Shown in pieces: positions 8,887-47,287 of a DNA stretch of 64,000 nt (within the stretch, counting starts at the first letter, position 1; each line of letters begins with the position of its first letter). The stretch lies in NCBI GenBank assembly GCA_965231015.1, contig OZ246408.1, positions 83,755 to 147,754 of the forward strand, read 5' to 3'. The notes below the pieces were generated by a model that was not told where the DNA came from, ran no database searches, and saw only the letters and a program-made list of their open reading frames with translations. Both the position numbers and the translations under genes were made by a program. The stretch comes from an uncultured Gammaproteobacteria bacterium (GTDB lineage: Bacteria > Patescibacteriota > Patescibacteriia > UBA9934 > CAZDDW01).

Positions 8887-10026
8887 ATGAAATATTTGAT
8901 TATCGGTGGTGGCGTCGCTGGAACAACTTGCGCTGAAGAATTGCGCAAGCAGGATGCCAAGGCCGAGATCACAATTGTCAGCGAAGAAAACCACCCACTT
9001 TATTCCCGGGTGCTGCTTCCTCATTACGCCATGGGTAAGGTGTCGCGTGAAAAGTGTTTTTTGAAATCTTTTGAGTGGTACAGAAAACAAAAAATTGAAC
9101 TCATTGAAGGACAACGGGCAGTAAAACTCGACACAGAAAATAAGTTTGTCGAATTAGACGATGCGCGTGAGCTGCCGTATGATAAACTCGTAATCGCTAT
9201 CGGAACTGAGCCACGTCTTGAAACCGGTGAGCCGCGTGGAGTGGGTTACTTTTGGACCATCGACGACACGGACCACTTAGTTAAGTTGCTCGGCGAACCA
9301 GGACACAAACATGCCGTGATTCATGGTGGTGGATTTATTGCGTGTGAATTTTTGAATCTGTTTGCGCATCACGAACTAGCAACCACAGTAGTGTTGCGCG
9401 GTGAACATTTTTGGAATCGGATTCTTGAACCAAAAGTGGCAGATTATTTTATGAATTACCTGAAGGAGCAAGGGGTTGAAATTGTAACTGGGGCAAAAGA
9501 GTTAGAGGTGATGGGCAAGGAGGAGGTCAAAGCTGTTAGAACAAATGGAATTGAGACCAAGTGTTCGGTACTCGGGGTTGCAATCGGAAACGAGATCGAT
9601 TTAACCTGGCTTAAGGAGACAGGGGTTGAGATTGGGGATGGGATTCAAACAAATGAGTATCTTGAAACTAAAGTTTCCAATGTTTATGCTATTGGTGACG
9701 TGGCCGAGAGTTATGACTCGGTGGTGGACAGACAGTATTTGGCCGGAAACTGGGGTCGAGCGTTGACAATGGGCCGCACTTTGGCAAAAACCATGACCGG
9801 TGAGCGGACCGAGTTTCAGCACGTGAGTTCTTACGCGATCAATGTTTTGGGATTAGATGTGACTTTTATTGGTGACACGGACAAGGATGCATCGGAGCGA
9901 GTCGAAATCGAGGAAAAAGAGCAGGGAATTGCCCAAAAACACTATCGGAATGGAATAATGGTTGGAGTAGCCATTTTTGGTAGGGGATTTGATCGAAATA
10001 AGCTTACCCAGGAAGTAGGCAATTAA
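8887..10026 (+). CDS. FAD/NAD(P)-dependent pyridine nucleotide-disulfide oxidoreductase (ferredoxin/rubredoxin reductase-like)
   Basis: N-terminal GGGVAG Rossmann motif and a second GGGFIACE dinucleotide motif; last gene of the Fe-S operon. Confidence 0.8.
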   Translation: MKYLIIGGGVAGTTCAEELRKQDAKAEITIVSEENHPLYSRVLLPHYAMGKVSREKCFLKSFEWYRKQKIELIEGQRAVKLDTENKFVELDDARELPYDKLVIAIGTEPRLETGEPRGVGYFWTIDDTDHLVKLLGEPGHKHAVIHGGGFIACEFLNLFAHHELATTVVLRGEHFWNRILEPKVADYFMNYLKEQGVEIVTGAKELEVMGKEEVKAVRTNGIETKCSVLGVAIGNEIDLTWLKETGVEIGDGIQTNEYLETKVSNVYAIGDVAESYDSVVDRQYLAGNWGRALTMGRTLAKTMTGERTEFQHVSSYAINVLGLDVTFIGDTDKDASERVEIEEKEQGIAQKHYRNGIMVGVAIFGRGFDRNKLTQEVGN

Positions 10027-10067
10027 TTGAAAATTAGCTAAAATAAGATAAAAAGTAGATTTTTGGT

Positions 10068-10105
10068 CCTTATTATTCCTACGTACGAATAATAAGGTCT
10101 TTTTC
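10068..10105 (+). terminator. Rho-independent terminator of the Fe-S operon (CCTTATTATT…AATAATAAGG stem plus T-run)
   Basis: A 10-bp perfect stem followed by TTTTT. Confidence 0.65.
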
Positions 10106-10119
10106 TTTGTGTCTAGACA

Positions 10120-10148
10120 TTGACAAAAAGCCTAAAATATGCTATATT
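10120..10148 (+). promoter_or_regulatory. Promoter copy 1 of the island: TTGACA-17(…GCCTAAAATATGC)-TATATT
   Basis: A consensus -35/-10 at 17-nt spacing. Positions 10120-10155 are nearly identical to 12750-12785. Confidence 0.6.
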
Positions 10149-10290
10149 TGTATGTTCTCCGTGTTAGGCTTTTGGTCGTATTTTAGAAAATGCCGAGCGG
10201 AGGAAAAGATTTCCTCGCTCTTTACAATAAGGCAAAACCACAAAAAAAAATGTGCGGCGGCAAAAGCCGATCGCACGGAGGGAAACAAAA

Positions 10291-12675
10291 ATGGCCAAGT
10301 CTGCTACCGCAACCACTTTGATAAGCTTAGTGGCGAACATCGCCAACTGGACGAACGACAACCTGGGCGGTCGTATCGCGCGACCGTTCATCGAGAAGGC
10401 CATCCACGCGCTGTCCGCGCAGGGGGCCAAGTTGTCGGCCTCGGCCGTCATCAAAGAGCTCGTGAAGCTCGGCTTCAACCCGGAAGCCGTGCAGGGCTCG
10501 GCGCTCTTCAAGTACGCCGCTCCCACCCTGCTGACCGCAGGTGCGGGCGCGCTGAACGTGAAGGTGCCGGAATCGGTCTTCGGCGGTGATATCCGCCAGG
10601 CCAAGGAGCTCGAGAGCTTCTTGAACAACGTGATCGATCGAGCCGGCGAGGGAGCCTCGTCCGGCATCACCACAAGTGGGGTCGATGATCAGACCATGCC
10701 CGGGGTCACTCCCGGAACCATGGTCTACGGCAAGGCTCACAACATGCCGGGCCTCGCCGGGTACCGGCACCTGGCCATTCAGGGTCAGGGGGACCAGGTC
10801 TCCACGGTTTGTTCGGCCGTGGATCGGTTCTACGAGAACAACGCCTTGCGCGAGCTCATCATGAAGATGGGACTCCGGCGCCTCGACCGTGACACGGACG
10901 TCACGGAGATCGAGCCCCACATGACCTACCACCTCCCCCAGGAGGTCGACCACCTCCCGGACTGCCCCCACTGCCTCGGGCGTCTGATGGGCCTCGAGAG
11001 CGATGAGCTCTCGGGTCCGGACAGTCTGGAGCAGCTGCTCGACACTGAGCAGAAGCGAAAGTGGGCGGCTCTCGTCCGCCATGTGGCAGCTCACGAGCAC
11101 CGCGTGGCTATGATGATCCTGAAGAAGGGTCGCGTTGCGATCCTGAAGCAGGAGGGTCTCGTGGACGTGCTCAAGCTCGCCCTCGATGACATCGAGATCG
11201 GACCGGAGACGTTCGAGAAGGACGCCAGGCGGAAGGTGTTGCCCCACGGCATCACCGGAGCCGAGCATGACCGGACGGGCAACCAGATCGCCCCGTCGGC
11301 TCAGGGCGTCGTGGACGTCTTGTACCTCATGGACGAGGTTCAGGTCGATGGCGTCACCGAGTGGCGTCAGCTGCTCGACGAGTCCGTGGACGGGAACTGG
11401 TGGCAGGCCAAGAAGCGTCAGGCCGCCAAGTTCGTGGCCAACAACGGCGCGTTCGGCGTGGCAGTCCTGGCCTTCCTCGGGGTGCTCATGGGCATCCTGG
11501 TCCTCGGACTGGAGCTCATGTTCCTCGGGGCGGCGGCTCTTGGCGAGACGCTCTACGTCATGAGCTGGATGGGTGGTCCGGACTGGATGTTCGGCAACCC
11601 GATCGTTCCGGGCATCTTGAGCCTGTTCCTGGTCGCGATCGGCGTGGCCATCATGGCCGCTCCGTTTCACCTCCTTGAAAAGATGGTCTTTGGCCTTAAG
11701 AGCCACTGGCCGAGCTTTGACGAGGCAGTGGAGCGACTACCGGCATGGTTGCACTGGCTAAAGAGCGAGCGCGCCGAGGCCGGCACCACGGTGTACCGTC
11801 GCTCCGGGGTGGTCAAGTCACTGGCGCTGACCGTGATCACGGCTCACTTACTGTACGCCGTGCCGGTGCTGATCATCAACCTCGAGGCGTTTTTTTTCTT
11901 CCCGAACGTGCTGGAGGCAACCGAAGTGGTCAGCCGACTGATCGCCTTCCTGTCGCTGGCTATGCTCGGCTTCTGGATGCTGTCCGCCACGCGCGGGTCG
12001 TACCAGGAGGACAAGAATCGCGAAGAGGTTCTGTTGAATCGCCGGGGCGCGAACCGGTTCGTGGCTTTCCTATCGGATTCCGCGTACTCTGCGGTGAGGA
12101 GCTTCAACTGGGGCAGCGCGTTCACCTACGTGCTGTCCATCTGCGTGATCCCGGTCGTTTGGGGGGTCACGAAGATGTCTGGCTGGGCGTCCCCGTCGGT
12201 CACCAACCCCTCGATCATCGCGGGAGCCAACACGGGCTTCTTCACGAAGCTCACCGGTGTGCCCGGAAGCGTGCACCTCGGGGTGTTCGTGGGCATCTTG
12301 TTGGTCGCACTGCTTATATTGGTGGTGGCCGTGAACGTGCGCAACCGCGCCGGCGAGGTGGTGCTCTGGTCCATGATGGGCCTGTGCATCTTTCTGCTCG
12401 TCGGATACTTCGGCATCGGTGTTCCTGGTTTGACCGTGGCCAAGCTCGCCACGGACGTCGGACACGGAGACGGCTTCTTCGAAGCCCCGACGTACGACGG
12501 GATGTATCCCGACAAGAAGGACGAGCGACGCGCCCGGCGCAGTGCTCCGGTCTCGGGATATACCACAACCCCGACGACCGCCAACCCCCCTGTGGTTTCT
12601 AACCCCCAGCCCGGTTCGGATCGATCCGACGAGATCAAGAAGGCTCGTCAGGAATTGGCCGAATATGGCTGGTAG
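10291..12675 (+). CDS. GC-rich island protein A: 794 aa, a ~400-aa soluble N-domain (contains DCPHC) fused to a ~8-10 TM membrane domain and a Pro/Thr-rich tail; function unknown
   Basis: A GGAGGG RBS lies 9 nt upstream of the ATG. There is strong GC3 bias in this frame only. Long antisense ORFs are GC artefacts. No recognisable family motif. Confidence 0.72.
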   Translation: MAKSATATTLISLVANIANWTNDNLGGRIARPFIEKAIHALSAQGAKLSASAVIKELVKLGFNPEAVQGSALFKYAAPTLLTAGAGALNVKVPESVFGGDIRQAKELESFLNNVIDRAGEGASSGITTSGVDDQTMPGVTPGTMVYGKAHNMPGLAGYRHLAIQGQGDQVSTVCSAVDRFYENNALRELIMKMGLRRLDRDTDVTEIEPHMTYHLPQEVDHLPDCPHCLGRLMGLESDELSGPDSLEQLLDTEQKRKWAALVRHVAAHEHRVAMMILKKGRVAILKQEGLVDVLKLALDDIEIGPETFEKDARRKVLPHGITGAEHDRTGNQIAPSAQGVVDVLYLMDEVQVDGVTEWRQLLDESVDGNWWQAKKRQAAKFVANNGAFGVAVLAFLGVLMGILVLGLELMFLGAAALGETLYVMSWMGGPDWMFGNPIVPGILSLFLVAIGVAIMAAPFHLLEKMVFGLKSHWPSFDEAVERLPAWLHWLKSERAEAGTTVYRRSGVVKSLALTVITAHLLYAVPVLIINLEAFFFFPNVLEATEVVSRLIAFLSLAMLGFWMLSATRGSYQEDKNREEVLLNRRGANRFVAFLSDSAYSAVRSFNWGSAFTYVLSICVIPVVWGVTKMSGWASPSVTNPSIIAGANTGFFTKLTGVPGSVHLGVFVGILLVALLILVVAVNVRNRAGEVVLWSMMGLCIFLLVGYFGIGVPGLTVAKLATDVGHGDGFFEAPTYDGMYPDKKDERRARRSAPVSGYTTTPTTANPPVVSNPQPGSDRSDEIKKARQELAEYGW

Positions 12676-12683
12676 GACTTCCT

Positions 12684-12733
12684 GGCCCGGTCGGGACGCG
12701 CAGTAAAATGCGTTGTCTCGGCCGGGTCTTTTC
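12684..12733 (+). terminator. Imperfect hairpin terminator after protein A (GGCCCGGTCGGGAC…GTCTCGGCCGGGTC plus TTTT)
   Basis: A stem with 2 mismatches followed by a T-run. Confidence 0.4.
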
Positions 12734-12749
12734 CGTTTATGCTTATATC

Positions 12750-12778
12750 TTGACAAAATTGCTAAAATATGCTATATT
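12750..12778 (+). promoter_or_regulatory. Promoter copy 2 of the island: TTGACA-17(…TGCTAAAATATGC)-TATATT
   Basis: A near-duplicate of 10120-10148. Confidence 0.6.
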
Positions 12779-12980
12779 TATATGTTCACAATTCATACTC
12801 GAGGGGAAGAGTAAGGCGCTGATTCTTTGTTTAACTGGGTTTTCCGGTTAAATATCCCCTCAAGAATTAGCGCTTTATTCGTCCCATTGAGGACACCAAC
12901 CAGAACCTTTCAATAATAGAACGACGACGGGGGAGGACCCCCAACAATAAAGGGGTTCCACCCCGAAAGGAGATACGGGT
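12779..12980 (+). promoter_or_regulatory. Roughly 200-nt structured 5' leader of the lipoprotein gene (several G/C hairpins; AGGAGA RBS at its end)
   Basis: Hairpins CTCGAGGGGA…TCCCCTCAAG, GGGGGAGGACCCCC and AAAGGGGTTCCACCCC are seen directly. Confidence 0.4.
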
Positions 12981-13751
12981 ATGAGGTACATCCTCATGAT
13001 GCTCGCAACCCTGACCCTGGTCGGCACCTCCGGGTGCAGCACCTACAACACGGCCACTCGCGGTGGCCAGTTCTTCGGCACCGGTGCGGTGGCCGTGCGC
13101 GGCATGGACGTCGCACAGGACATGTGCACCACCAAGGACGGCGAGAGATTGCCGTGCAACCTGTCGGCCGTGAGCACCCCGCACGGGGCCGTGGTCGGCG
13201 CGAGCAACGGCGCCTACTACGGCTACCCGTACAGCGCGGTGCCGTACGCGCCGGGCATGATGCTCGGCGGATCGACCGGCAACCCGCAGCTAGACTCGGT
13301 CAAGTTGTACCGCGCCACCCATCCGGGGGTGCCGTACAACCAGACCGCGGCAGACCTGTCCGCGGCCGGGACGTACCAGGCGGTGCGTCAGGGTCAGATG
13401 ACCCGGGCCGCGGTGGCCGGCAACACCGCCGCGATCTACGATGTCGCGGCCGACCAAGCCGCCACGGACGAGTCCGTGCGCGGCCTTGAGGCGAACCAGG
13501 CCGCCACTGCGGCCGAGGTTGAGGACGTGAATCTGCGTTTGCATCAGAACGCGCAGACGCAACAACGGATGGCCCAGGACATTGCCGGGGCCATCAAGGA
13601 GAACGAGGACCGAGCCAATGCGGCCGGTCAGGCGGCCAGCCTGGCTCTCGAGGTTCTCGACGAGGGTGGGTCGAATGGTTCGGCACTGACCGTGGATCAC
13701 CAGATCGAGATCGCGGTTCCGGCCGGGACTGCGGAGGAGGACGACCGATGA
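12981..13751 (+). CDS. GC-rich island protein B: lipoprotein (lipobox LVGTSGC) with an Ala/Gln-rich coiled-coil C-terminus
   Basis: Signal peptide plus lipobox, AGGAGA RBS, and GC3 bias in this frame. Confidence 0.68.
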   Translation: MRYILMMLATLTLVGTSGCSTYNTATRGGQFFGTGAVAVRGMDVAQDMCTTKDGERLPCNLSAVSTPHGAVVGASNGAYYGYPYSAVPYAPGMMLGGSTGNPQLDSVKLYRATHPGVPYNQTAADLSAAGTYQAVRQGQMTRAAVAGNTAAIYDVAADQAATDESVRGLEANQAATAAEVEDVNLRLHQNAQTQQRMAQDIAGAIKENEDRANAAGQAASLALEVLDEGGSNGSALTVDHQIEIAVPAGTAEEDDR

Positions 13752-14566
13752 AGAAGCTAAACCTGATCGCGGTGGCCTTCGTGGTCGCCACCTGCTGTGT
13801 GCTCCCGGCCTACGGGCAGGGAGGCAACCAGCCTTTCGTGATCTCGGAGTCCACCTGGCAGATGTGCCGGGAGGAGGGGATCACGGTGTACGAGGAGTGC
13901 GTGCTCGCCAAGGCTGCCGTGTCCTACACGGCGGTCAAGGGAGAGCGTGACGAGCTTCAAACCCAGAACGCGCACCTGCGCGGTCAGGTCGCGAATCTCG
14001 AGGACGAGAACGCGCACCTGCGCGGTCGCGTCATCTCGCTTGAAGACGCCCAGAGCAGGCTCGAGGCCAAGCTCGACGACCTGCTCGCCGCATCCGCGAC
14101 CGGACCAGCGCCGAGCCTGACCACTCCGGCCATGCCCGCCGCCGCACCAGTGGCCGACCCGCTTTCGGTCGCCTGGAGCAGCGAGCCGCGCAACCACGAG
14201 TTCGCGGCCCTCACCGGTTTGACCTGGGAGTCGTGCGAAGACATGGGTCTTTGCACGGCGTTCGTGAACCAGTCCGCCTACTCGATCACGATCGACGTGG
14301 GCGGGGTGCGTACGGTCATCGGCCGGTCGCACGGGGTCGCGAGCCTCACTCCGGCGCCAACCACTCATGGCGCCGAGACTCTGGTCGGACCGGGTCAGCG
14401 GGTGTACTTGTACGTCGGAGAATCGAGCTTCGACGCCACGTACACCGCGTACGTGCCGATCCGAGGTACGTTCGTGCCGAGCTTCACAAAGACGGTCACG
14501 AACGTGAAGACCAAGGGGGCCAATCCTTTCAAGGGGATTGGCCGAGGTGGCTGGAGCTCCCTCTAG
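13748..14566 (+). CDS. GC-rich island protein C: secreted protein with tandem leucine-zipper-like repeats (NAHLRGQVANLEDENAHLRGRVISLED) and a C-terminal globular domain
   Basis: The ATGA start/stop overlap with protein B implies translational coupling. A signal peptide is present. The repeat is visible at the DNA level (13963-14040). Confidence 0.68.
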   Translation: MKKLNLIAVAFVVATCCVLPAYGQGGNQPFVISESTWQMCREEGITVYEECVLAKAAVSYTAVKGERDELQTQNAHLRGQVANLEDENAHLRGRVISLEDAQSRLEAKLDDLLAASATGPAPSLTTPAMPAAAPVADPLSVAWSSEPRNHEFAALTGLTWESCEDMGLCTAFVNQSAYSITIDVGGVRTVIGRSHGVASLTPAPTTHGAETLVGPGQRVYLYVGESSFDATYTAYVPIRGTFVPSFTKTVTNVKTKGANPFKGIGRGGWSSL

Positions 14567-14595
14567 CCCTGGTCTTCTTCTCTCCAAAAAAAAAA

Positions 14596-14634
14596 CACCC
14601 CGCAGGGTTCTCTTGCGGGGTGTCTCACTTTTTA
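14596..14634 (+). terminator. Strong rho-independent terminator ending the GC-rich cassette (CACCCCGCAGGG…CTTGCGGGGTG plus TTTTT)
   Basis: A 10-bp GC stem plus a T-run, immediately after protein C. Confidence 0.75.
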
Positions 14635-14644
14635 TAGAATTGTC

Positions 14645-15037
14645 TTAACCTTGGGCAGCTGTGACAATCGCGGAGATAACGTAGGAAGAAATGGCGTACG
14701 CAGCCACGGTAATGATCAGACCAATAATGGCATTGATCATAATTCCCTTGGCTTTCTTCACGGTGTCGGAATTACCACCGGCGGTCATCCAAAGAAATCC
14801 TGAATAAACAATCAGGACCACAAAGACAAGACCGAGCAACCCGAGCACCACGTTGATAATACCGGCAATTATGGTGGTCAAATCTCCTGAACCAAATCCA
14901 CCTTCTGTGCCAACGTCAGTCAGTGACTGTGAGGCTCCGTCTAAACCAGTAAAGGCATCATCTTGAGCATGAGCTACACTGGCACTAAGGTAAGTCAGTG
15001 GAGAAAGGGCCGCTAGGGTTTTGATAACCTTATGCAT
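14645..15037 (-). CDS. TrbC/VirB2-like pilin-family small membrane protein (paralog 5 of 5)
   Basis: Signal peptide, then hydrophobic helix, GGxxWMTxGGN loop, and a second hydrophobic helix (…YSGFLWMTAGGNSDTVKKAKG…). Confidence 0.5.
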   Translation of the reverse strand: MHKVIKTLAALSPLTYLSASVAHAQDDAFTGLDGASQSLTDVGTEGGFGSGDLTTIIAGIINVVLGLLGLVFVVLIVYSGFLWMTAGGNSDTVKKAKGIMINAIIGLIITVAAYAISSYVISAIVTAAQG

Positions 15038-15069
15038 AAGTTTGTTATTTATTAGTTTTCTAAAATTAA

Positions 15070-15456
15070 TTATCCGGCAGTACCTGATCCGCTCACGGCC
15101 TGAACAAGAGCCGGTACCACATAACTGGCAATGGCATAGGCCGCGGCCACAATCACAAGTCCAATCAGGGAATTAACAATGGTGGCTCGAGCCTTTTTGA
15201 CCGTTTCAGTGTTTCCCATCGCGGTCATCCAGGTAATACCACCATAAATTAAAAGCACTACAAAAACAAGACCAACAATACCAAGCACTGCATTAATGAT
15301 GCCAGCAACCACTCCGGCCAGGGACGGGGCCGTGGAACCAAATCCGGCCGCACCGGCAGTGTCCTGGAGACCGGTATCTTCCGGACTGATAGCCTGAACC
15401 AGGCTTGGTGGACCAAGCATCAGCAGACTCAAAATAACGTAGTAGACTTTTCGCAT
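15070..15456 (-). CDS. TrbC/VirB2-like pilin-family small membrane protein (paralog 4)
   Basis: Same architecture (…YGGITWMTAMGNTETVKKARA…). Confidence 0.5.
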   Translation of the reverse strand: MRKVYYVILSLLMLGPPSLVQAISPEDTGLQDTAGAAGFGSTAPSLAGVVAGIINAVLGIVGLVFVVLLIYGGITWMTAMGNTETVKKARATIVNSLIGLVIVAAAYAIASYVVPALVQAVSGSGTAG

Positions 15457-15530
15457 ATGACGCGAGAGGACGAAATATTCATCCGCTCACGCCAGGCCCC
15501 TTCTAAAATGAATCAGAAGGGGCTTTGGTT

Positions 15531-15956
15531 TTAAGCAACCGCTTCCACCAGAGCATTGATAACAAAGCTGGCGATAGCGTAGGCGGCAAGTACAATAGCC
15601 AGACCAATGATACCCATGATGATCAGCTTGCGTGCGTTACGCACCTTTTCATCTTGACCACCAGAGGTCATCCACAGGAAGCCACCCCAGAGAATGATCA
15701 CAACTGCTACTACTCCGAGGAATCCAAGGATGGCTCGGATAATGGTAGCGATCACAGTGGCCAGATCTGCCTGACCAAGACCAGCTACGTCCCCAATCGT
15801 TTCACCTTCCCCGCCTTCAACCCGTAAAAGATCATTAGCGGAAATTGGAGCGTAGGAGTCGTCATCATCGTCCTGCGCCAAGGCTGGAACAGCCACCATG
15901 CTCATGCATAGAGCCATACCAAGACCAAGGGCAATCAGCTTCTTTGTCATAGACAA
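15531..15956 (-). CDS. TrbC/VirB2-like pilin-family small membrane protein (paralog 3)
   Basis: Same architecture (…WGGFLWMTSGGQDEKVRNARK…) with an acidic DDDDD segment after the signal peptide. Confidence 0.5.
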   Translation of the reverse strand: MSMTKKLIALGLGMALCMSMVAVPALAQDDDDDSYAPISANDLLRVEGGEGETIGDVAGLGQADLATVIATIIRAILGFLGVVAVVIILWGGFLWMTSGGQDEKVRNARKLIIMGIIGLAIVLAAYAIASFVINALVEAVA

Positions 15957-16064
15957 ATGTGTTAATTAACTAGTTAATTACTTAAATAATTATAGCACAA
16001 TAAGCAGGAAACCGTATACACAAACAACTTAAATCAGAGTTTTTATTATTTGAAGCATAGCTTC

Positions 16065-16412
16065 TTAATTTCCACTGATTTCTCCACTCGTCAGAGCGCG
16101 AATGACTTGATCTACAGCTAAATACGAAGTGAAAATAATAGCCAGACCAATCACGGCCCAAATAAGAGTCTTTTTTCCTTTTTCTATTGCCTCGCTTTTA
16201 CCGCCCGAAGTTAACCAAAGAAAACCACCGTAGATGAACATTAAAAGAGCTACTGATCCGGAAATACCAAGAGCCACTCGAATGACGCGACCGATTAAAA
16301 CCGGAATAGAAGCTCCACCGAGTGGATCAGTTAATTCTTGAGCCAGGGCCGGGTTAATAATTACAACTAGGGCAACAAGGGTGAGAAAAGAAATTAAGTA
16401 AAACTTTTTCAT
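16065..16412 (-). CDS. TrbC/VirB2-like pilin-family small membrane protein (paralog 2)
   Basis: Same architecture (…YGGFLWLTSGGKSEAIEKGKK…). Confidence 0.5.
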   Translation of the reverse strand: MKKFYLISFLTLVALVVIINPALAQELTDPLGGASIPVLIGRVIRVALGISGSVALLMFIYGGFLWLTSGGKSEAIEKGKKTLIWAVIGLAIIFTSYLAVDQVIRALTSGEISGN

Positions 16413-16426
16413 ATAAATGTTTTTGA

Positions 16427-17071
16427 TTAAAATTCTTCAGGAGCCTCTCCAATATCAACTTCAGTACAACACACTTCCTCAGCTCCCAAAGGGCACAGTC
16501 CGGTTCCTGAACTACAGTTAGGGGCTAGGCCGTGGGTACTTTCCGAATAACACACGCCGCCTTCTTGATAATTACAAAGTGTGGTACAGATTCCGTTTTC
16601 ACAAACCGCGTTGACATCGCAGGCGGTTCCATCCTCAGTATCAAAGGTACATGGAGCATATTCAGCACTACTGCCGGCAATGGTTCCTCGGGTGATGGTT
16701 GATTCAACAGTTTGTATTCCGATGTAAGCCACGAATACAATAATGATTCCCACAATAGCCCCGGTTATATAGGCCTTGCCTTTTTGAACTCGACCGGATT
16801 CACCCTGGGAAGCCAGTAAATAAAAGCCACCAACTACAAACAGGAGCAGAGCCAAAGAGCCAACTATGCCCAAGATGTAATCTGAAATATTAACAAAGAC
16901 CTGTAAAAAGTCGTTTAAAGAACAGTCCCCGGTTTCCCAGCAGAGAGTGGTTACTCCCGAGAGTATTCCGGCCTCAGAAGCACTCACCGTACTTTCACTT
17001 TCCTGAGCCAGGGCTGGCAGGGCAGTGGCCGATAAGGTCAGGGCTATCAATAATCCTGTCAACCTTTTCAT
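16427..17071 (-). CDS. TrbC/VirB2-like pilin-family protein with an extra C-terminal Cys-rich domain (paralog 1)
   Basis: Core …GGFYLLASQGESGRVQKGKA…, plus a ~70-aa C-terminus with 14 Cys. The start overlaps the stop of the upstream SBP gene by 4 nt. Confidence 0.5.
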   Translation of the reverse strand: MKRLTGLLIALTLSATALPALAQESESTVSASEAGILSGVTTLCWETGDCSLNDFLQVFVNISDYILGIVGSLALLLFVVGGFYLLASQGESGRVQKGKAYITGAIVGIIIVFVAYIGIQTVESTITRGTIAGSSAEYAPCTFDTEDGTACDVNAVCENGICTTLCNYQEGGVCYSESTHGLAPNCSSGTGLCPLGAEEVCCTEVDIGEAPEEF

Positions 17072-18462
17072 AAAGTTTGATTTACTTGCGATTGAGCTTT
17101 GCGTAATTCTTTTTCCAGGTCTTCCGCACCGGTTAAGACATCTTCGACAAAGTTTAACAGGGCTTCTTCAGCGGCTTCAGCATCTTCTCCGTCATACCAA
17201 TCATCAGCTGTTAACACTTGGCTGGCGAAAACAGACAGGTCAAGATCATCAAGTTGGGTGTTAATCAGTGAGCGCAAAGCGGTTGGTTTATCTGCGCTTT
17301 CTAAAAACTTGATTACGTTTTCAGCCTCGGCAGTATATTGGATAAAGTCCCAGGCTTCATTTAAGTGCTCGGTGTCTTTGGCCACAACCTCGATCCAATA
17401 GTTAGCAAAATTGACTGTACGGCTGTTTTCAATTTGTGGCACCGGAGCAATTTCAAAGTTGAGTTTTGGATTGCGAGCTCGCAGCTGTGGAATGTGATAG
17501 GCATAGCCAAAGAAGAAGGCGGTAGTGCCATTGGCAAAAGCATCAAACGAATCTTCCATATCTTCGTTCCAAGTATAAACTTCTTTGATTGGATTGGCAA
17601 AATCAGTGTAGAAACGCACGGCATCAATGGCCGGAGGAGTGCGACTGGTAGACCCAGTCGGAACCTCGGCAAAGTAAGCACGGTTCCCACTCATCATCTG
17701 AGTTCCATTTTGCATCATTAAAATTGATACAATATCGACCGCCCGTTCCACATTTTCTGTGGTTCCAATTGCTGCTCCAGACTGAACAATTCCACCATCT
17801 AGGTCAACCAAGGTGAGTTCTTTAACTTGAGATTGAAAATCTGACCATGTAGCCGGTGGTTCCGGAATTCCGGCCGCGTTCAAAAGATCCTTGTTGTAAA
17901 AAAGGGCCAGGGTATCGACTGAATAGGGTAGGCCCCAAATGCGGTTCTCTGAAGCTGATTGACTTGAGGCCTGATAACGGCGCACCACGTCATCAGCCAC
18001 CACATCGACATAGTCATTTTTTAGCTTATTAATGGTCAGGCTTTTTTCTTCCCGAATGACAGCCACAGTTTCTTTTTGAAGAGTGCCCTGAACTTCAAGA
18101 TAGACCAGGTTAAGACTTTCCGGTAGCGGAGTAATCAGAGGCTCATATTTTTCCATCCATGTGTTGTGAATACTAAACATGTCCGGCCCTCGGTCTTCTG
18201 CAAAAGCTTGCACCAGCTCGTCCTCATATTCTTCGTATCTCTTTTTTACGATGTTGATGTTGATGTTGGGGTGGATTTCACGGTAAGCACTGATAATTTC
18301 ATCAAAATCATTCTCTCCCTCGAAAACTCGCCAGTAGGTCAAGTTGATTTTTTCATTGGCGGCTTGTTGGGCTGCCTGGTTTCCACCTTTAAAACAGCTC
18401 TGTCCAGTGGTTACTAGAAAAATCAAGACCAAGGCCAATAAACTGATTCTTTTTATTTTCAT
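17068..18462 (-). CDS. ABC transporter extracellular solute-binding lipoprotein (family 1, sugar-type)
   Basis: Lipobox (TTGQSC), length and composition typical of SBP_bac_1. Confidence 0.75.
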   Translation of the reverse strand: MKIKRISLLALVLIFLVTTGQSCFKGGNQAAQQAANEKINLTYWRVFEGENDFDEIISAYREIHPNININIVKKRYEEYEDELVQAFAEDRGPDMFSIHNTWMEKYEPLITPLPESLNLVYLEVQGTLQKETVAVIREEKSLTINKLKNDYVDVVADDVVRRYQASSQSASENRIWGLPYSVDTLALFYNKDLLNAAGIPEPPATWSDFQSQVKELTLVDLDGGIVQSGAAIGTTENVERAVDIVSILMMQNGTQMMSGNRAYFAEVPTGSTSRTPPAIDAVRFYTDFANPIKEVYTWNEDMEDSFDAFANGTTAFFFGYAYHIPQLRARNPKLNFEIAPVPQIENSRTVNFANYWIEVVAKDTEHLNEAWDFIQYTAEAENVIKFLESADKPTALRSLINTQLDDLDLSVFASQVLTADDWYDGEDAEAAEEALLNFVEDVLTGAEDLEKELRKAQSQVNQTL

Positions 18463-18465
18463 ATT

Positions 18466-19338
18466 TTATAAATCCTTACAGATTTTTTTGAGTTCTTTTT
18501 TAAAGTTGGCTCCGTACTTTTTATCGGCCAAAGCCATTTCTACGTTGGTTTTGAGCCAGGCCTCAATAGTTCCAATATCACGGTAAACACCCTCAACTTT
18601 TTTGGCGTAAATTGGTCGTTTTTTTGCCAGAGCAAAAATGGCGTCCACCAGCCAAAGCTCGTTGTCTTTACCAAGCTTGGTTTTTTCCAAGATGTCGAAG
18701 ATGTCCGGGGTCAAGATGTAACCACCGATAGCGGCTAATTTTGACGGTGCTTTGTCAGGACCTGGTTTTTCCACGATCCCGTTAACTTGAACTACACCAG
18801 GTTCAACTTCGGCAGCAGGATCAATGATTCCAAAACGACTTTGCCCCTTTTTGTCGGTTGGGATAGCGGTTAGAACCGGGTCAGTGTATTTGTTGTAAAC
18901 TTCAATCAGTTGCTTGACCCTAGGCTTCTTGCTTGAGAGAAATTCATCACCCCAAACCACTACAAATGGTTCGTCTCCGACCACGTGTCGAGCGTTCAAA
19001 ACCGGTGTCCCATTTCCATATGGGCCTTTTTGTCGAATATAAACGAAGTTGGCCATGTCAGCAATGTGTTTGACCTCTTCGCGCAAAGCATCCTTGCCCT
19101 GCTTTTTAAGCATGGTCTGAAGTTCGAAGTTGTAATCAAAGTGGTCCTCAACTGCACGTTTACTCATTCCGGTCACCAGAACTATGTTCTCGATTCCGCT
19201 CGCGACACATTCCTCAACCACATATTGAATCACCGGCTTGCCTACAACCGGCATCATTTCTTTAGGCATTGCCTTAGTGGCGGGCAAAAATCTGGTTCCA
19301 AATCCCGCAACAGGGATAACAGCGGTTTTGATGGCCAT
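18466..19338 (-). CDS. galU: UTP--glucose-1-phosphate uridylyltransferase
   Basis: …AVIPVAGFGTRFLPATKAMPKEM… N-terminal motif; 290 aa. Confidence 0.88.
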   Translation of the reverse strand: MAIKTAVIPVAGFGTRFLPATKAMPKEMMPVVGKPVIQYVVEECVASGIENIVLVTGMSKRAVEDHFDYNFELQTMLKKQGKDALREEVKHIADMANFVYIRQKGPYGNGTPVLNARHVVGDEPFVVVWGDEFLSSKKPRVKQLIEVYNKYTDPVLTAIPTDKKGQSRFGIIDPAAEVEPGVVQVNGIVEKPGPDKAPSKLAAIGGYILTPDIFDILEKTKLGKDNELWLVDAIFALAKKRPIYAKKVEGVYRDIGTIEAWLKTNVEMALADKKYGANFKKELKKICKDL

Positions 19339-19757: not shown

Positions 19758-20630
19758 CTATTTCTTGAAATATTTCTTGATAATAGCAATTACATCTTTT
19801 TTATCACTGACTTTCATTAAATCTTGTGTGCTTTCTTTTGCGAAACGATTCAGTTTCGGTAAATTCAGATGACAAGCTCGAATAATTTTATGTTTTGCAA
19901 ATTTAATTAGGCTGGGATCGTTTTTGTTGAAAATACCAAGACGAACAAAAAGTGTTTCGTATGCCATTATTATTGCGAAAAAATAAACAAATGGAATAAA
20001 CGAGAATGTTAATAATGGAGGCAAAATAAAAGTCTTCAAATTTTGTGAAGTCATAATATTCTGAAAATCACCAAAAACTTTTCCAAGTGCAAAAACAATG
20101 AAAAAAACACCAATCAAAGACAGAATAAAATCAAATAACTTTTTTACAGGCAGATACTCTTTTTTTAATTCAGAAACAGCACTCATTGCTACGATAAAAA
20201 CCAAAACGGGAACTAAAATTATTTCCGCTACTAAATTAAATGTGTAGAGCGTTAGAATAAACTCAAGGGCTAAAATGATTTTGAGGTTATCTTTCAAGAT
20301 TTTAATGAAAAATCCTTTTTCCTGATTTGCCTTGTTAGTATTCATGAGTAATACAAACGCAACGGCTAAAAACCAGTAAATCGTATCTTTTAGAAGTGAA
20401 AAATCCCAGATTCCAATTTTAACTAATACTAAAACTGTAAATCCGGTATATACAATCGCAGCAATAATGACAGATAGTATTTTTATTTGGAAAAGAGATT
20501 TTAAAACACCAGAAAAGGATTGTCTGATTTTCTCTTGAGAAAGTATCCAAATTGTCAAAACAAGAAGCCAGAGAATTATTGCTATTTCTCTTGTGTTGAA
20601 TTGTTGAAAAAAGGTCATGAATTTATCCAT
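19758..20630 (-). CDS. Polytopic membrane protein of unknown function (8 predicted TM helices), AT-rich island
   Basis: The 290-aa hydrophobic ORF overlaps the stop of the upstream 517-aa gene by 8 nt. Confidence 0.5.
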   Translation of the reverse strand: MDKFMTFFQQFNTREIAIILWLLVLTIWILSQEKIRQSFSGVLKSLFQIKILSVIIAAIVYTGFTVLVLVKIGIWDFSLLKDTIYWFLAVAFVLLMNTNKANQEKGFFIKILKDNLKIILALEFILTLYTFNLVAEIILVPVLVFIVAMSAVSELKKEYLPVKKLFDFILSLIGVFFIVFALGKVFGDFQNIMTSQNLKTFILPPLLTFSFIPFVYFFAIIMAYETLFVRLGIFNKNDPSLIKFAKHKIIRACHLNLPKLNRFAKESTQDLMKVSDKKDVIAIIKKYFKK

Positions 20631-22176
20631 TCTTTATGTCGTCAAAGAATTTGTGGTAAATTCTATCCAATAAATCAATTTGATAAATCTCATTTCTTCC
20701 AGCGATAATATCTTCCAGTGAATCAAACAAATTCTGTTGTTTGTTTTTTGCTTGCTGGCAAACTAGCTCAAATTCCCAACAGCCAAAAATATAAAAATTG
20801 TCTGACTGTTCTTTCATTTTCTCTTTTATTTTTTCTCGTGCATATTTGTTTACTCCAAACATCTCATCTAAAAACACAACAATGTTGATGATTTTTTGGT
20901 TTTTATATTTTACTTGGCTAACATTATCGGCTTTTATGTGTGTTTCTTTTTTAGCTATTTTATCAACTTCTTTAGCCAAATCTTCGATCAGTTTATTGAT
21001 ACCATTACCATCTTCGTTTTGTATACCAGCTCTTGAATAATTATCTATCTTTCGTTTTTTGCACTCGATCTGAAAAATAAAATCGTCTGAGACTAAAAGC
21101 CAATCGGTTGTTTTCCATTCATTTTTCCCTACTTTGTAAGTTGCTTCTTTGATTACTTCTGCCCTTGTTAGAGCGTCTATATTGTATTGTTTAAAAAATT
21201 CTCCGATATAATCTTCAAAAATACTGCCGATTTCCTGAAGTAATGTTGTTTTGTCACTATTTTCTAATCTTTCGAGAAGCACGTAATATAAGCCTTCAAA
21301 TGTGCCATATAAAAAGTCTGAAATAGACGGAATTACAAATTTTTCGTTTTCCTTTGCGGAATTGGTTTTTATTACAGGGTATCTTTTTAATACGTTAAAT
21401 TCGTATTTTTTAAGTAGCGAATCAGTTATTTCATGTTTTTTATTTTCTTCTACGAATTTATCTGATGATACAGAAAAAATATCGAAAAACTTATTTATGT
21501 TTTCTTCGCTAAGCAGTGGTCTAAGCGGAATAATTGAGGTATTTGTGTAGCTACTCATTAAAAATGAAGTAGCAAATTGTCCGTCCTCTCTTGGGCAATA
21601 ATTGGCGAAAATACAAGTGCCAATTTTCATTGCTTTGAATATTTCTATTCCAAGTGCTGAATCTAATTTCTTCCCAAGCGATGGATTCCGTTCAAAAATT
21701 TTTGAAAAAATCCAATAGTATCTTGCAATAATACTTGAATGAAAACGTAAATAAAACCACTGATGATTTGTGTTGCGAATAACCCATAACCATCCCTTGT
21801 CTGTTCTGTCCTCTTCAGTTTTAATGTGGTTTAATTCTGTCTCCATATTTCCGTACATATAAACCAAATTCGTTAAATCCACATCGTTATATTGTACCTC
21901 TTGCTCTTTGCAATTCAGTAAAATCTGTTTAGAGAGAAAGGAAACAAAATCTCTAGTGAGAGTACCTGCTTTTAATTTAACTTTTGGTGATGCATAAAAT
22001 TCAAATTCAACATTTACATTTACATACACTTGGTTCCCCATTAGGGCACCTAATTTTTGAATCGACATTAAAGAACCGACAAAATCAAAATTTTTGACGA
22101 CATTATTAAAATCATCAACAGTAAAGTGTCTTGAAAATGGAATATCTGACGAAGTTTGAATTTTTATATCGCTCAT
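20623..22176 (-). CDS. Uncharacterised 517-aa protein (candidate defence/restriction component), AT-rich island
   Basis: A long ORF with very low-GC codon usage. The start was placed at the ATG 29 nt downstream of the stop of the DUF262-HNH gene (the upstream in-frame ATG at 22314 would overlap that gene by 110 nt). No recognisable motif. Confidence 0.5.
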   Translation of the reverse strand: MSDIKIQTSSDIPFSRHFTVDDFNNVVKNFDFVGSLMSIQKLGALMGNQVYVNVNVEFEFYASPKVKLKAGTLTRDFVSFLSKQILLNCKEQEVQYNDVDLTNLVYMYGNMETELNHIKTEEDRTDKGWLWVIRNTNHQWFYLRFHSSIIARYYWIFSKIFERNPSLGKKLDSALGIEIFKAMKIGTCIFANYCPREDGQFATSFLMSSYTNTSIIPLRPLLSEENINKFFDIFSVSSDKFVEENKKHEITDSLLKKYEFNVLKRYPVIKTNSAKENEKFVIPSISDFLYGTFEGLYYVLLERLENSDKTTLLQEIGSIFEDYIGEFFKQYNIDALTRAEVIKEATYKVGKNEWKTTDWLLVSDDFIFQIECKKRKIDNYSRAGIQNEDGNGINKLIEDLAKEVDKIAKKETHIKADNVSQVKYKNQKIINIVVFLDEMFGVNKYAREKIKEKMKEQSDNFYIFGCWEFELVCQQAKNKQQNLFDSLEDIIAGRNEIYQIDLLDRIYHKFFDDIKNG

Positions 22177-22204
22177 AACTCTATTTCTGCAATCATGAAA
22201 TTTA

Positions 22205-23374
22205 CTATCTGTTACCCTTTGCCCGATTATGTGTTTTACACAACATCTCACAATTTTTAATGTCACTTTTGCCGCCCTTACTCCAAGCCGAAACATGGTC
22301 GGCGTCCATTTCACTTAAACTCCAAATTTTTGTTTTGTTTACGTCGTGACCGATAGCACAATGCGGACAATTTGATTTACCCTTTTTCTCCGCTTCAGCG
22401 GTTTGTGTTTTATAAACTGCTTTTTTGGTTGCTTCATCAAAAACTCGAACTTCAAGTAATTTTGTATCAACTGAACCTCCGAGAATATATTCAAAAATGC
22501 CTTTGCGCTTTTTAACATACGGATCGGCATAGAGTGTTTGCACCTCAACTGACACTTTCTTGGGATCATATGCTTTCTTATGGTACTGCTCATACAGTCG
22601 GCCCCACTCAAGTCCGCGCATTTCACTTTCAACATCAATAAATACACTGGAAACCCAATCGATGACGCTGTTGAAATAGGTTTTTAGCTCTTTGATATTC
22701 TCGTCGTAGCGATGATGACTCATATAATCACCAATATTCCCCTTACTTACCCAATCAAGGGCGCACTCTAAAAAATCTTGCCGATTTGCGCTGCCTTTTA
22801 CATATGCACTCCATTTTTGGATATTGGCATTTTGACTATTGCTGAATTCAGCTTTTCCAAGAGTAACAAATGGGCCAGAGTAAACTGCGTTGAGTAGTTC
22901 CTGATTGTTAAGTGGTACTCCAACAATATTGATTGTTTTGAACCATTCTTTTATCTCACTTTCGGTTCCTTCGCACTCATAAATAGTTAGTTTTGTTTCC
23001 AAAATCTTGGTTTGTTTGTCTTTTGCCATGCCACCAAAATATTGCTCCATGCCGTTTTCATCTTTGATAGCAAATTTGTCAGTAACAAATCGCCCAAGAC
23101 TGGTAATGCGCTGTTGACCGTCTAAAACTTCGAGATTGTTGTCGCTTACCTTATTAAAATAAATCAATCCTATTGGGTAACCTTTTAGGACTGAATCAAT
23201 AACAGCTATTTCTTTTTTGCCGCCGTCAGAAGCGTAAATATAGTTTCGCTGATATTCAGGCTGAATAGTCAGTTTGCCGGATAAACCGAATAAGCCCTTA
23301 CCTTCTAGCTCGTTATATACAAAGCCATCGCAGATTTCTTTGACAGTAATGGTGATTTGTAAACTTGTTTTCAT
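22205..23374 (-). CDS. DUF262 (ParB/GmrS-like, DGQQR motif) plus HNH endonuclease fusion protein
   Basis: N-terminal …IQPEYQRNY…DGQQR… and C-terminal …CPHCAIGH…[32 protein letters not shown] (HNH). Confidence 0.78.
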
Positions 23375-23375
23375 A

Positions 23376-24566
23376 TTATTGTTTGTTATGTTTGATAAGC
23401 ACCCTTTGATAAACTTTTACTAATAGCCCGTCACGGTTAACAACGCCGCTTGCATTTAAGTCATAAGTTCCTTTTTTTCCGAATTTATCTAAATACGCTT
23501 GTTTACATTCTTCAGTCGTGTACACCCTTGTTTTTAATTTGTACAAATCTTCATTTTCACACATCCCAACAATTTTAAACTGTTCGGGGCTATATTTATC
23601 AAGAATGCTTATCGGCACGCCCATAATGCCATCGAAATCACTCGGAATGTTTTTTACTAACGATACTTCTATCGCGTCATAATTTTCGTACTTTTCAAAA
23701 GGTTTTTTTGTTACGAATTTGATTACCTCTGCTTGTGTCATGAGTGGTAGAGGTTGATGACGGCGACCATGATCAAGGTTAGTGAACCAACGAACACCTT
23801 GCACTCGTGTAACATAAACTTTTTTGCCACTTGCATTTGTTTTGATTTCACGGACTTGCTCCAAATTCGCAATAGCTTCTGGTATCTCAAAAAACATTGC
23901 GCCGGCATTAATTTTGTAATTATTGCCCAACCAAACTTTATTTTCTTTAAGTAATGGGAATATTTCTTTGTATGTTATCGCGTTCAGGTTGCCGATGATC
24001 AAAAACTTTTTATCATAATCAACAAGTTGTTTTATGTATTCTCGAAATAGACTGAATGGTGGATTTGTTACCACAATGTCAGCTTGTTTAAGTAGAGCAA
24101 TAGATTCTTCGCTACGAAAATCACCATCGCCATCTAGCGGAGTCCACTCATTGTCTTTATTTTGCTTAAGCTGTAGAGCAATGTCCTCTAAGTCAAAATC
24201 GCCGTCGCCATCTATGTCGCCTACTTTATTAATAATGAATTTATTTGCAGTTACCTTTCGGCGGCCTTTTGGTTTTGTGAGAGTTTTATCATCGCCAAAC
24301 AATGCTAGTTGCGTATTGGCTACGGGTGATGGTTTATAACTGGTAGTAATAAGCTGTTTTAGTCCGAGCCTGTCAAAGTTGAGTACAAAATATCGAAAGA
24401 AATTGCTTTCAAACGGATCGTCGCAGTTGCAATACACTACCTTGCCTCGGAATACATTGGGGTCGTATTCCAAATAGGCCTCTATTTCTTTTTGAATATC
24501 GGAATATTGAGTATAAAACTCATCATTCTTTGTTCTTTTTGCGTTGGTGAGATTTTTATTCGCCAT
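23376..24566 (-). CDS. N6-adenine DNA methyltransferase (gamma-class-like, NPPF motif)
   Basis: …DEFYTQ… near the N-terminus and …[13 protein letters not shown]… catalytic motif. The stop abuts the start of the DUF262-HNH gene. Confidence 0.78.
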
Positions 24567-25011: not shown

Positions 25012-25103
25012 TGGCGGAGGGAGGGAGATTCGAACTCCCGGTACCCTATAAGGATACACCGCATTTCGAGTGCGGCGCCTTCAACCACTCGAGCCATCCC
25101 TCC
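25012..25103 (-). tRNA. tRNA-Ser (CGA)
   Basis: A 92-nt cloverleaf with a long variable arm; anticodon stem CCGCA/TGCGG, loop CTCGAAA; encoded CCA. Confidence 0.85.
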
Positions 25104-38193: not shown

Positions 38194-38544
38194 TTATTTA
38201 ATTACTTGTTTAAAACGCCGCGTTTTTCTTATTATTTTTTCAGCTTTTTCGTATAGTTCATTTTTTGTTTCTGAATCAATGTAGTCAAGTTTATGAGCGA
38301 GAGTGATCAAACTAACTGTTTCTGCGGTAGATCCAATACTGTAGCCGAGAAATCGAATGAAATCTTTTGTAGTGTTTGTTCCAGAGCCCTCCGCAATATT
38401 TGTTGGTATTGAGATCGCAGCACGTCTTAGTTGATCAGATAGAGAGAATCGTTCGAGTTTTGGAAAATGATCAATTGTTTTATATAAATCTAAACAAAAC
38501 TCAAGGGATAAGTTCCAAATATCTAATTCTTCGAATCGAAACAT
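38194..38544 (-). CDS. Four-helix-bundle protein of the 23S rRNA-intervening-sequence protein family
   Basis: 116 aa with …LSDQLRRAAISIPTNIAEG…GYSIGSTAE… typical of this family. It is flanked by imperfect inverted repeats. Confidence 0.75.
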   Translation of the reverse strand: MFRFEELDIWNLSLEFCLDLYKTIDHFPKLERFSLSDQLRRAAISIPTNIAEGSGTNTTKDFIRFLGYSIGSTAETVSLITLAHKLDYIDSETKNELYEKAEKIIRKTRRFKQVIK

Positions 38545-44010: not shown

Positions 44011-44948
44011 TGCAGGGATGGAGAGATGTAAAAGGCTATGGAGACACAAAATATGACAAATTTAACCCAATTGCTTATAGACTAGGCGGTATCCTAAGAC
44101 CGTAAACATTATAATCGTTTACGCAGGATCGCTCACTAGGCGGTTTTTTGGTTGTAAAACAAAGCCTCTGCTCGAGTGCGAACTCGAACAGGGACCAGGA
44201 TCGCAACCGATCCCATGAACTTTCACAATTGAATTCCATAACAACAAACAATACGACAAACTTAAGATCTGATTGTTGGAGAATCGTTCAGCAATCGAAA
44301 CAGATTCATTAAGTGGTTGTAGAGCATCATAAGAGCATATGGTGGATGCCTCGACAGAAGACGCCGATGAAGGACGTAGCAGCCTGCGATAAGCCTCGGG
44401 AAGGTGGCAAGCAACCTTTGATCCGGGGATTTCCGAATGGGGAAACCTAGCATGGAGAATGCCATGTTGTCTTGCACTGAATATATAGGTGTAGGATGGG
44501 AACCTGGTGAAGTGAAACATCTCAGTAACCAGAGGAAAAGAGATCAAGACTTGCTAATGTAGTAATTGCATAATGCTTTATGCGATGGCTACATTCTGCA
44601 AGTTCATTCCCTTAGTAGCGGCGAGCGAAAGGGGATGAGCCCAAACCTTTAATGTGAAGTTTTATTGAACTATCTCTTCGGAGTTAGGGATTTATAACGA
44701 AAGCTATTAGGCGTTGCATTTAAGGGGTTGTAAGATAGTTGTGTTCTCTTGCTAATACAAGAGAGGTAAGGTCAAAAATTATGACTTCCCTAATAGAAGC
44801 CGTTGGAAAGCGGCACCAAAGAGGGTGATAGTCCTGTACATAAAAGGGGTTATATCCTTACGACAATTATTCTTGAGTACCACGAGACTCGTGAAATCTT
44901 GTGGGAACCTGCCGCGACTATGCGGTAAGGCTAAATACGTCTTCTGAT

Positions 44949-44985
<37 letters not shown>

Positions 44986-45552: not shown

Positions 45553-45587
<35 letters not shown>

Positions 45588-45679
45588 TAAAGATAGCGTA
45601 ACAGCTCACTGGTCAAGCTTTTTTGCGCCGAAAATGTAACGGGGCTAAATCACGTACCGAAGTTGAGGGTGTTTGTGTC

Positions 45680-46644: not shown

Positions 46645-46691
46645 GAAGCTCCTGACCGAAGCGCGGATGAACGCCGGCGATAACTATAATC

Positions 46692-46754
<63 letters not shown>

Positions 46755-47242: not shown

Positions 47243-47273
<31 letters not shown>

Positions 47274-47287
47274 AGCTGGAGAAGGTT

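Follow-up and report, generated by a model that had tools for sequence, protein, structure and literature searches.

This study concerns an operon that carries five tandem genes for VirB2/TrbC-like pilin proteins (pil1 to pil5) in a 64,000-nucleotide (nt) stretch of contig OZ246408.1 (GenBank assembly GCA_965231015.1), referred to here as the window. The window is chromosomal, from the dnaA/dnaN region of an Uhrbacteria-like genome of roughly 1 Mb (GTDB class ABY1, Patescibacteria). It opens inside dnaA, continues with dnaN and contains one 23S-5S rRNA pair and six tRNA genes. The nearest named relatives of pil1 and of the solute-binding lipoprotein (SBP) encoded just upstream of it were entries for Candidatus Uhrbacteria and other Patescibacteria metagenome-assembled genomes (MAGs).

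The pilin operon and its products

Seven closely packed genes occupy the minus strand between 14645 and 19338 and are followed by a terminator-like hairpin, as listed below with lengths in amino acids (aa) and with Pfam E-values or bit scores.

18466..19338, minus strand: GalU-like protein (UTP-glucose-1-phosphate uridylyltransferase-like), 290 aa (NTP_transferase, 6.6e-29)
17068..18462, minus strand: SBP, a family-1 (sugar-type) extracellular solute-binding lipoprotein, 464 aa (SBP_bac_1, 5.9e-27)
16427..17071, minus strand: pil1, VirB2-like pilin with a Cys-rich C-terminal module, 214 aa (PF18895, 30.3 bits)
16065..16412, minus strand: pil2, the shortest VirB2-like pilin, 115 aa (PF18895, 42.4 bits; PF04956, 28.1 bits)
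15531..15956, minus strand: pil3, VirB2-like pilin with a DDDDD tract, 141 aa from a TTG start (PF18895, 43.5 bits)
15070..15456, minus strand: pil4, VirB2-like pilin, 128 aa (PF18895, 37.7 bits)
14645..15037, minus strand: pil5, VirB2-like pilin and last gene of the operon, 130 aa (PF18895, 46.0 bits)
14595..14623, no strand assigned: bidirectional intrinsic-terminator-like hairpin with a 13-bp stem, an A-run upstream and a T-run downstream (terminator scan and direct reading of the sequence)

The gaps between successive genes, from the GalU-like gene to pil5, are 3, -4, 14, 108, 74 and 32 nt. The GalU-like gene, which stops 3 nt ahead of the SBP start, is probably the first gene of the operon, and a same-strand gene of about 290 aa was also found directly upstream of the SBP ortholog in the majority of related loci. 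The 4-nt overlap between the SBP stop and the first pilin gene given in a preliminary description of this DNA was confirmed; the shared letters are ATGA, an arrangement that as a rule points to translational coupling. An alternative start of pil3, the ATG at 15950, gives a protein of 139 aa, is used in public assemblies and is probably the true one. The pilin genes are of ordinary GC content (41–52%). The hairpin after pil5 was the sole strong terminator-like element and, being flanked by an A-run and a T-run, would be able to close both this transcription unit and the convergent one described below.

In agreement with the preliminary description, the five consecutive minus-strand open reading frames (ORFs) encode proteins of 115–214 aa, each with a signal peptide and two hydrophobic helices. 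In all five, a positively charged N-terminus is followed by a hydrophobic core and then by an AxA-type cleavage site (predicted, from pil1 to pil5, as PALA↓QE, PALA↓QE, PALA↓QD, LVQA↓IS and VAHA↓QD), and the signal peptides are short (22–27 aa) and classical. Type IV (prepilin-peptidase) pilins were considered and rejected on account of these classical Sec signal peptides with AxA sites and the lack of a G↓F/M-xxxE motif. The mature proteins begin with an acidic, variable N-terminal stretch, which in pil3 starts QDDDDD and so contains the DDDDD tract reported earlier. This stretch is followed in hydropathy profiles by two long hydrophobic segments that are separated by a short, glycine-rich, basic loop (KGK, NAR, KAR or KAK). 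The GGxxWMTxGGN motif originally placed in this loop is real, its versions being GGFYLLASQGES, GGFLWLTSGGKS, GGFLWMTSGGQD, GGITWMTAMGNT and SGFLWMTAGGNS, but it is approximate, as just two glycines are invariant and the motif covers the end of helix 1 as well as the loop. AlphaFold2 gave confident helical hairpins, as anticipated, for pil1 (helices 52–87 and 92–128, with a predicted local distance difference test score, pLDDT, of about 90) and for mature pil2 (helices 12–44 and 49–85, mean pLDDT 79, hairpin core about 90).

After helix 2, pil1 continues into an 86-residue tail (residues 129–214). The 14 cysteines formerly attributed to its C-terminal domain were a miscount: the protein contains 12 in all, C44 and C50 in the mature N-terminal region and 10 in the C-terminal module (141–202). 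Both termini of pil1 are predicted to be extracellular, so all 12 cysteines would be extracytoplasmic, which is compatible with disulfide bonding. Local alignments of the five paralogs indicated identities of 31–52%, with pil3, pil4 and pil5 forming one subgroup (46–52%), and no DNA repeat longer than 18 nt linked the pilin genes. The genes are thus diverged and not recent duplicates, as had been stated.

The reading of these genes as VirB2-like pilins is supported by profile searches. All five proteins scored above the gathering score of PF18895 (T4SS_pilin, 26.6 bits), and pil2 also exceeded, just, that of PF04956 (TrbC/VirB2, 27.9 bits). Against PF04956, pil3 narrowly missed the cut-off (26.0 bits), pil1 was well under it (14.0 bits), and pil4 and pil5 did not match this profile. 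Similarity to NCBIfam NF045849, a pilin-like family of Mycoplasma integrative and conjugative elements (ICEs), was sub-threshold (E 4.6e-8 to 0.011; 15–33 bits against a cut-off of 40). The VirB2/TrbC-type assignment of the preliminary description was therefore upheld, and the match to holins or other small membrane proteins that it had named as the contrary outcome did not appear; a PHROGs search with the five pilins returned no holin, the only match being a weak PnuC-like one for pil4 (E 0.003).

Conservation of the binding protein, the first pilin and the array

The SBP matched SBP_bac_8 (1.1e-20) in addition to SBP_bac_1, and its closest solved structures were oligosaccharide-binding proteins (E 3.7e-15 or weaker). 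Its N-terminus, MKIKRISLLALVLIFLVTTGQSC, matches the PROSITE lipobox pattern, and such a motif was present in 76 of 83 orthologs. At least 2603 homologs were found, for which annotation pipelines give the name of sugar-transport binding proteins, and the named entries among the top 120 were all from Patescibacteria. No ABC permease or ATPase gene was detected by Pfam among window ORFs in the SBP operon.

Related loci were collected by scanning for the SBP in one genome per species, which gave 80 loci at 40–69% identity (Uhrbacteria, Falkowbacteria, Kuenenbacteria and others), and pilins in these loci were identified with a hidden Markov model built in this analysis. Of the 80 species-level loci with room for one, 78 had a same-strand pilin gene immediately after the SBP gene, and the remaining two had a single small ORF between SBP and pilin. 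This first pilin had a median length of 214 aa and a median of 10 Cys, with at least six Cys in 55 of 80 loci; the other pilins of the same loci (n = 337) had medians of 137 aa and 0 Cys. Full-length orthologs of pil1, from Uhrbacteria and other Patescibacteria MAG entries, were 41–92% identical, with conserved Cys columns. No permease pair, sought as adjacent polytopic ORFs of 230–360 aa, lay next to the SBP in any of the 80 loci. The SBP is thus an orphan binding protein, without neighbouring ABC permeases.

Two further architectures were noted. In one, only the SBP and one pilin are adjacent and six more pilins lie 2–6 kb downstream, at loci that sit among SMC, ComM-like, RodZ-like and methyltransferase genes; since only the SBP and one pilin stay together there, the SBP and first pilin are the conserved core. 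In the other (L046, L050, L054, L058 and L063; for example L050 5345-15258), the SBP is followed first by three large "pilins" (about 215–230, 366–407 and 254–270 aa) and then, on the same strand, by three large proteins (about 370–760 aa) without a Pfam match. The near-invariant pairing of SBP and Cys-rich first pilin, in at least 80 species, is new relative to published arrays, and no published link between a binding protein and these pilins was found within the limited literature that could be searched.

Conservation extended to the order of the whole array. In L002, L003 and L004 the order was GalU, SBP, 4-nt overlap, Cys-rich pil1, four more pilins and three convergent genes, and beyond the latter lay genes for TrxR, ferredoxin, NifU and IscS. 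The pilins of the window were closer to pilins at the same position elsewhere (43–71%, including 64–71% for pil3 and 59–62% for pil5) than to their own paralogs. When best matches were tallied across 21 five-gene arrays (420 comparisons per position), they fell at the same position in 377, 388 and 348 cases for positions 1, 2 and 3, respectively (83–92%). Positions 4 and 5 intermixed with position 3, their best matches often being at positions 3–5, and array size among related loci ranged from 1 to 16 pilins. The position-specific orthologs at positions 1–3 indicate that the paralogs are old and non-redundant. Judged from these sequence comparisons, the array is ancient, with no fewer than three distinct types of subunit and, in addition, a pil3–5 subgroup that is more fluid.

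The convergent cassette and other features of the window

The genes that converge on the array are as follows.

10291..14566, plus strand: convergent three-gene cassette, in the same position in L002, L003 and L004
10291-12675, plus strand: gene a, 794 aa, with a soluble N-terminal domain (about 380 aa) followed by about nine transmembrane helices
12981-13751, plus strand: gene b, lipoprotein-like coiled-coil protein
13748-14566, plus strand: gene c, secreted coiled-coil protein

The GC content at third codon positions (GC3) of this cassette is 83–86%, compared with about 45% elsewhere, in a genome of about 46% GC. The GC-rich block stops at 14566, 78 nt from the pil5 stop and with the terminator hairpin in between; the preliminary description was correct in placing its end right beside the array. 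The intergenic regions of the cassette are 36–46% GC; GC enrichment is thus confined to coding sequences, and the promoter regions have a native appearance. Upstream of genes a and b lies a duplicated 52-nt AT-rich element (10106-10157 and 12736-12787, 81% identical) with the promoter-like sequence TTGACA-17-TATATT, of which these were the only two copies in the window.

At the gene a position, 15 loci (L002, with the cassette at 12401-17384; L004, with the cassette at 9758-13800; L008, L011-L016, L023, L024, L026, L027, L040 and L062) encode a polytopic protein that is comparable in size and layout and tied in part to gene a by chained BLAST, and in every one of the 15 the GC3 of its gene was higher than that of the SBP gene beside it. 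Cassette proteins were only 20–42% identical between genomes as opposed to 54–87% for the products of flanking genes. Searches of Pfam, the PDB and PHROGs gave no match to them, and only seven relatives of gene a turned up among 1.84 billion representatives. The "extended VirB6-like" layout of gene a prompted the idea that it might encode a VirB6, for which no support was found, there being no TrbL/VirB6 Pfam match in the window. The possibility that the GC-rich block stems from an assembly chimera was rejected, since a Logan contig (SRR7048225) that was assembled independently has identical junctions and the block keeps its position in other genomes. One hypothesis for the GC anomaly is recurrent recombination and GC-biased gene conversion at a fast-evolving envelope locus. 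In the closest genomes the cassette keeps its position relative to the array, and a functional tie to the pilins is hypothetical.

On the other side of the operon, a low-GC block (19758-24566, 29–39% GC) lies between the GalU-like gene and a gene for tRNA-Ser (25012-25103). It encodes an 8-transmembrane-helix membrane protein, a 563-aa unknown protein, a GmrSD_N and HNH nuclease and an EcoRI-type adenine methyltransferase, is missing from the syntenic loci L002 and L004 and is probably an inserted defence island. Further away, the region 35618-38146 encodes an 842-aa protein with three lamin-tail domains and an OB-fold nucleic-acid-binding domain, which resembles a protein that is secreted or surface-located and binds DNA, and which may be relevant to DNA uptake. 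The match to 23S rRNA (44318-47634) spans 3317 nt as compared with 2925 positions of the model, equivalent to roughly 390 nt of insertion(s). The 16S gene is not adjacent to it, the only neighbouring rRNA gene being 5S (47711-47817), and 6 kb ahead of the 23S gene, at 38194-38544, is a gene whose product belongs to PF05635 ("23S rRNA-intervening sequence protein").

Interpretation and comparison with known systems

We consider it moderately probable that the locus is the operon of a surface apparatus of the kind characteristic of Patescibacteria and related to type IV secretion systems (T4SSs), in which GalU, SBP and pil1 to pil5 are encoded together, the five VirB2-like subunits are non-redundant and the SBP and Cys-rich pilin form a receptor module. 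In such an apparatus, Sec would export the pilin precursors and signal peptidase I would cleave them; as in VirB2 and TraA, both termini would then lie outside the cell and the basic loop on the side of the cytoplasm or lumen. The bulk of a thin filament or short conduit would be made of pil3–5, which are the subunits most alike and most prone to turnover, with pil1 and pil2 as specialised minor subunits. Polymerisation would depend on a VirB4/VirB6-type machine encoded elsewhere in the genome, a step that is the weak link of the model. Outside the cell, pil1 would present its disulfide-rich ectodomain, which, with the co-translated SBP, might either capture host-derived oligosaccharides for uptake or bind host surface glycans for attachment. 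Assembly and function of the apparatus are what we infer, as was the idea of a surface fibre or uptake structure in the preliminary description, which the conserved SBP linkage makes more concrete. DNA or nutrient uptake from the host is one speculated role of the T4SSs and pilin arrays of Patescibacteria, and the pairing of SBP with a Cys-rich pilin gives a concrete handle on this idea in the form of a screenable ligand and a defined ectodomain.

Several results weigh against a T4SS-related apparatus. The Cys-rich module of pil1 was modelled by AlphaFold2 with low confidence (pLDDT <50), gene order is the only indication of contact between SBP and pil1 and, to our knowledge, no PF18895 protein has been observed to form filaments. 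Foldseek searches of the PDB with full-length pil1 and mature pil2 returned only generic helical hairpins with E above 1 (best matches CHMP4B, ATP synthase subunit c and CnrX; the Aeropyrum conjugation pilus was 9th and 33rd, not significant), and single-sequence and profile searches of the PDB with the pilins found nothing significant (VirB2 8exh, E 3.6). With a two-helix hairpin, the lack of a specific structure match is no surprise and speaks neither for nor against the assignment. Fold searches could not tell this hairpin from generic ones; the basis for calling these proteins pilins is therefore their sequence profiles and topology and not a specific structural match.

Searches for secretion machinery were also negative. 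Pfam detected no VirB4, VirB6, VirB3, VirD4/coupling protein or relaxase among window ORFs of at least 300 aa, in keeping with the earlier remark that VirB4, VirB6 and VirD4 genes are not nearby. The 5 kb upstream of dnaA on the Logan contig contained rnpA and trigger factor and no T4SS gene. Similarly, no VirB4-like ORF was found within about 10 kb in the 80 related loci, where Walker-A ORFs of at least 450 aa were SMC, ComM-like, ABC-F, GyrA or unknown. In Table S1 of a published survey (PMC12102498), only three of seven listed genomes with this operon are VirB4-positive, and 18 of 36 Uhrbacteria are so scored (part 11) as compared with 2417 of 3035 genomes (80%) phylum-wide. With such mixed scores for operon carriers, T4SS-driven assembly is not secured. 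The same part of the table also scores assemblies of 1,070,576 and 1,070,568 bp differently, as "Yes" and "No" for VirB4. VirB4 absences are thus unreliable, as the genomes are draft MAGs and near-equal-sized assemblies are scored differently, and VirB4 may be divergent or unevenly detected in Uhrbacteria.

An alternative that takes these negative results at face value is that the pilins stay in the membrane as a T4SS-independent complex in which pil1 docks the SBP for non-ABC, binding-protein-dependent uptake or sensing. The orphan state of the SBP in all 80 loci, the reduction of the conserved core to SBP and one pilin, the housekeeping rather than T4SS character of the neighbouring genes, with no VirB4 within about 10 kb at any locus, and the report of VirB4 in about half of the Uhrbacteria in the part of the table noted above, against 80% phylum-wide, are all points in its favour. 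We nevertheless regard it as unlikely, since the family shares homology with TrbC/VirB2 pilins, which are known to polymerise, the equivalent array of Saccharibacteria lies inside an essential T4SS cluster and the VirB4 absences come from draft MAGs. Moreover, we know of no precedent for a two-helix pilin as a transporter partner.

That the five genes are interchangeable variants of one major pilin, serving antigenic or host-range variation, is rather improbable. Such a role has been proposed for the VirB2 paralogs of Bartonella and Anaplasma and suggested for Patescibacteria arrays (PMC12102498), and it would fit the range of array sizes (1 to 16), the subgroup turnover indicated by best matches of positions 4 and 5 at positions 3–5 and the variable, acidic mature N-termini. 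The orthologs at positions 1–3, however, are position-specific in 21 genomes and closer between genomes (43–71%) than to their own paralogs (31–52%), pil1 has a unique conserved Cys-rich module, and the genes form a single operon with no sign of switching repeats. Position-specific orthology thus argues for multi-component structures and not for pools of antigenic variants. The reading of the ORFs as unrelated small membrane proteins, either holins or chance hydrophobic ORFs, is highly improbable and effectively refuted, for even though fold searches gave generic hairpins and PF18895 scores are modest (30–46 bits), all five proteins exceed a curated Pfam cut-off, PHROGs contained no holin match and the genes, which are chromosomal and not in a prophage, have gene-by-gene orthologs in conserved order in dozens of genomes.

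A bolder reading, which we offer tentatively and think improbable, is that SBP, Cys-rich pilin and VirB2-like paralogs make up a self-contained, VirB4-free surface organelle of class ABY1, an SBP-armed fibre or pore for host sugars or glycans. If true, this would be a new nutrient-acquisition or attachment device derived from a co-opted conjugative pilin fold.

Among known systems, the array is most readily compared with those of other Patescibacteria. A survey of 3,035 genomes of this phylum, with PF18895 and PF04956 among its profiles, described 441 arrays of 2–11 VirB2-like genes in 383 assemblies, with a mean identity of 25% and a maximum of 54% (Quinonero-Coronel et al. 2025, PMC12102498). 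Arrays were most abundant in Microgenomatia and Saccharimonadia, only 1135 of 1948 assemblies had a pilin in the vicinity of virB4, and a position near dnaA was common for T4SS genes (PMC12102498). A six-pilin array in the T4SS cluster of Southlakia epibionticum ML1 is essential (Wang et al. 2023, PMC10633639), as is the T4SS of this species, the only one tested (PMC10633639, PMC12857230). A 2025 review considers this to be the one monoderm T4SS with potential for conjugative pili (PMC12857230), and the role of the T4SS and pilin array of Patescibacteria has been called "completely unknown" (PMC11665869). The preliminary description was right about the absence of a secretion ATPase nearby, but such arrays are less of an oddity than it implied, as 441 have been published and one is essential.

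The present array shares with the published ones the Pfam family (PF18895/PF04956, the latter cut-off being passed here by pil2), a tandem of between 2 and 11 genes alike in structure but diverged in sequence (here five adjacent genes, 31–52% identical in local alignments), a monoderm ultrasmall host of the Patescibacteria and a chromosomal position near dnaA, and given the 441 arrays already published it is a further member of a described kind. It differs from them in that the locus is not in or beside a virB4 cluster and in that an SBP gene heads the array and overlaps the gene for an extended Cys-rich pilin by 4 nt. The survey deals with the surroundings of virB4 and makes no mention of a binding protein; the present array belongs to class ABY1.

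Likeness to the VirB2/TrbC/TraA proteins of the Agrobacterium T-pilus and F-pilus is seen in the cleaved leader, the two hydrophobic helices and the short basic loop. VirB2 and TraA leaders are long, in contrast to the signal peptides of 22–27 aa seen here, and, unlike the diderm loci, the present one has no adjacent VirB3–VirB11 and includes a paralog with a predicted disulfide-rich ectodomain. The Mbov_0395 family of Mycoplasma ICEs (NF045849) likewise consists of small two-helix monoderm proteins, with weak profile similarity over the whole hairpin, but the pilins score below its cut-off of 40 and the locus is not in an ICE context. Several diverged tandem VirB2 copies are also present in the T4SSs of Bartonella, Anaplasma and Rickettsia, where they are regarded, according to work cited in PMC12102498, as surface-antigen variants of a single major pilin, as opposed to the conserved, distinct orthologous types found here at no fewer than three array positions. 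As to the SBP, a clear SBP_bac_1 member with a lipobox is typical of a carbohydrate ABC importer, except that permease and ATPase genes are absent beside it in the window and in the 80 loci, and pilin genes occupy the place usual for permease genes in such operons. The locus goes beyond the published arrays in its conserved module of SBP and Cys-rich pilin, in paralogs that are specific to their positions and in lying consistently apart from VirB4 as well as from ABC permeases.

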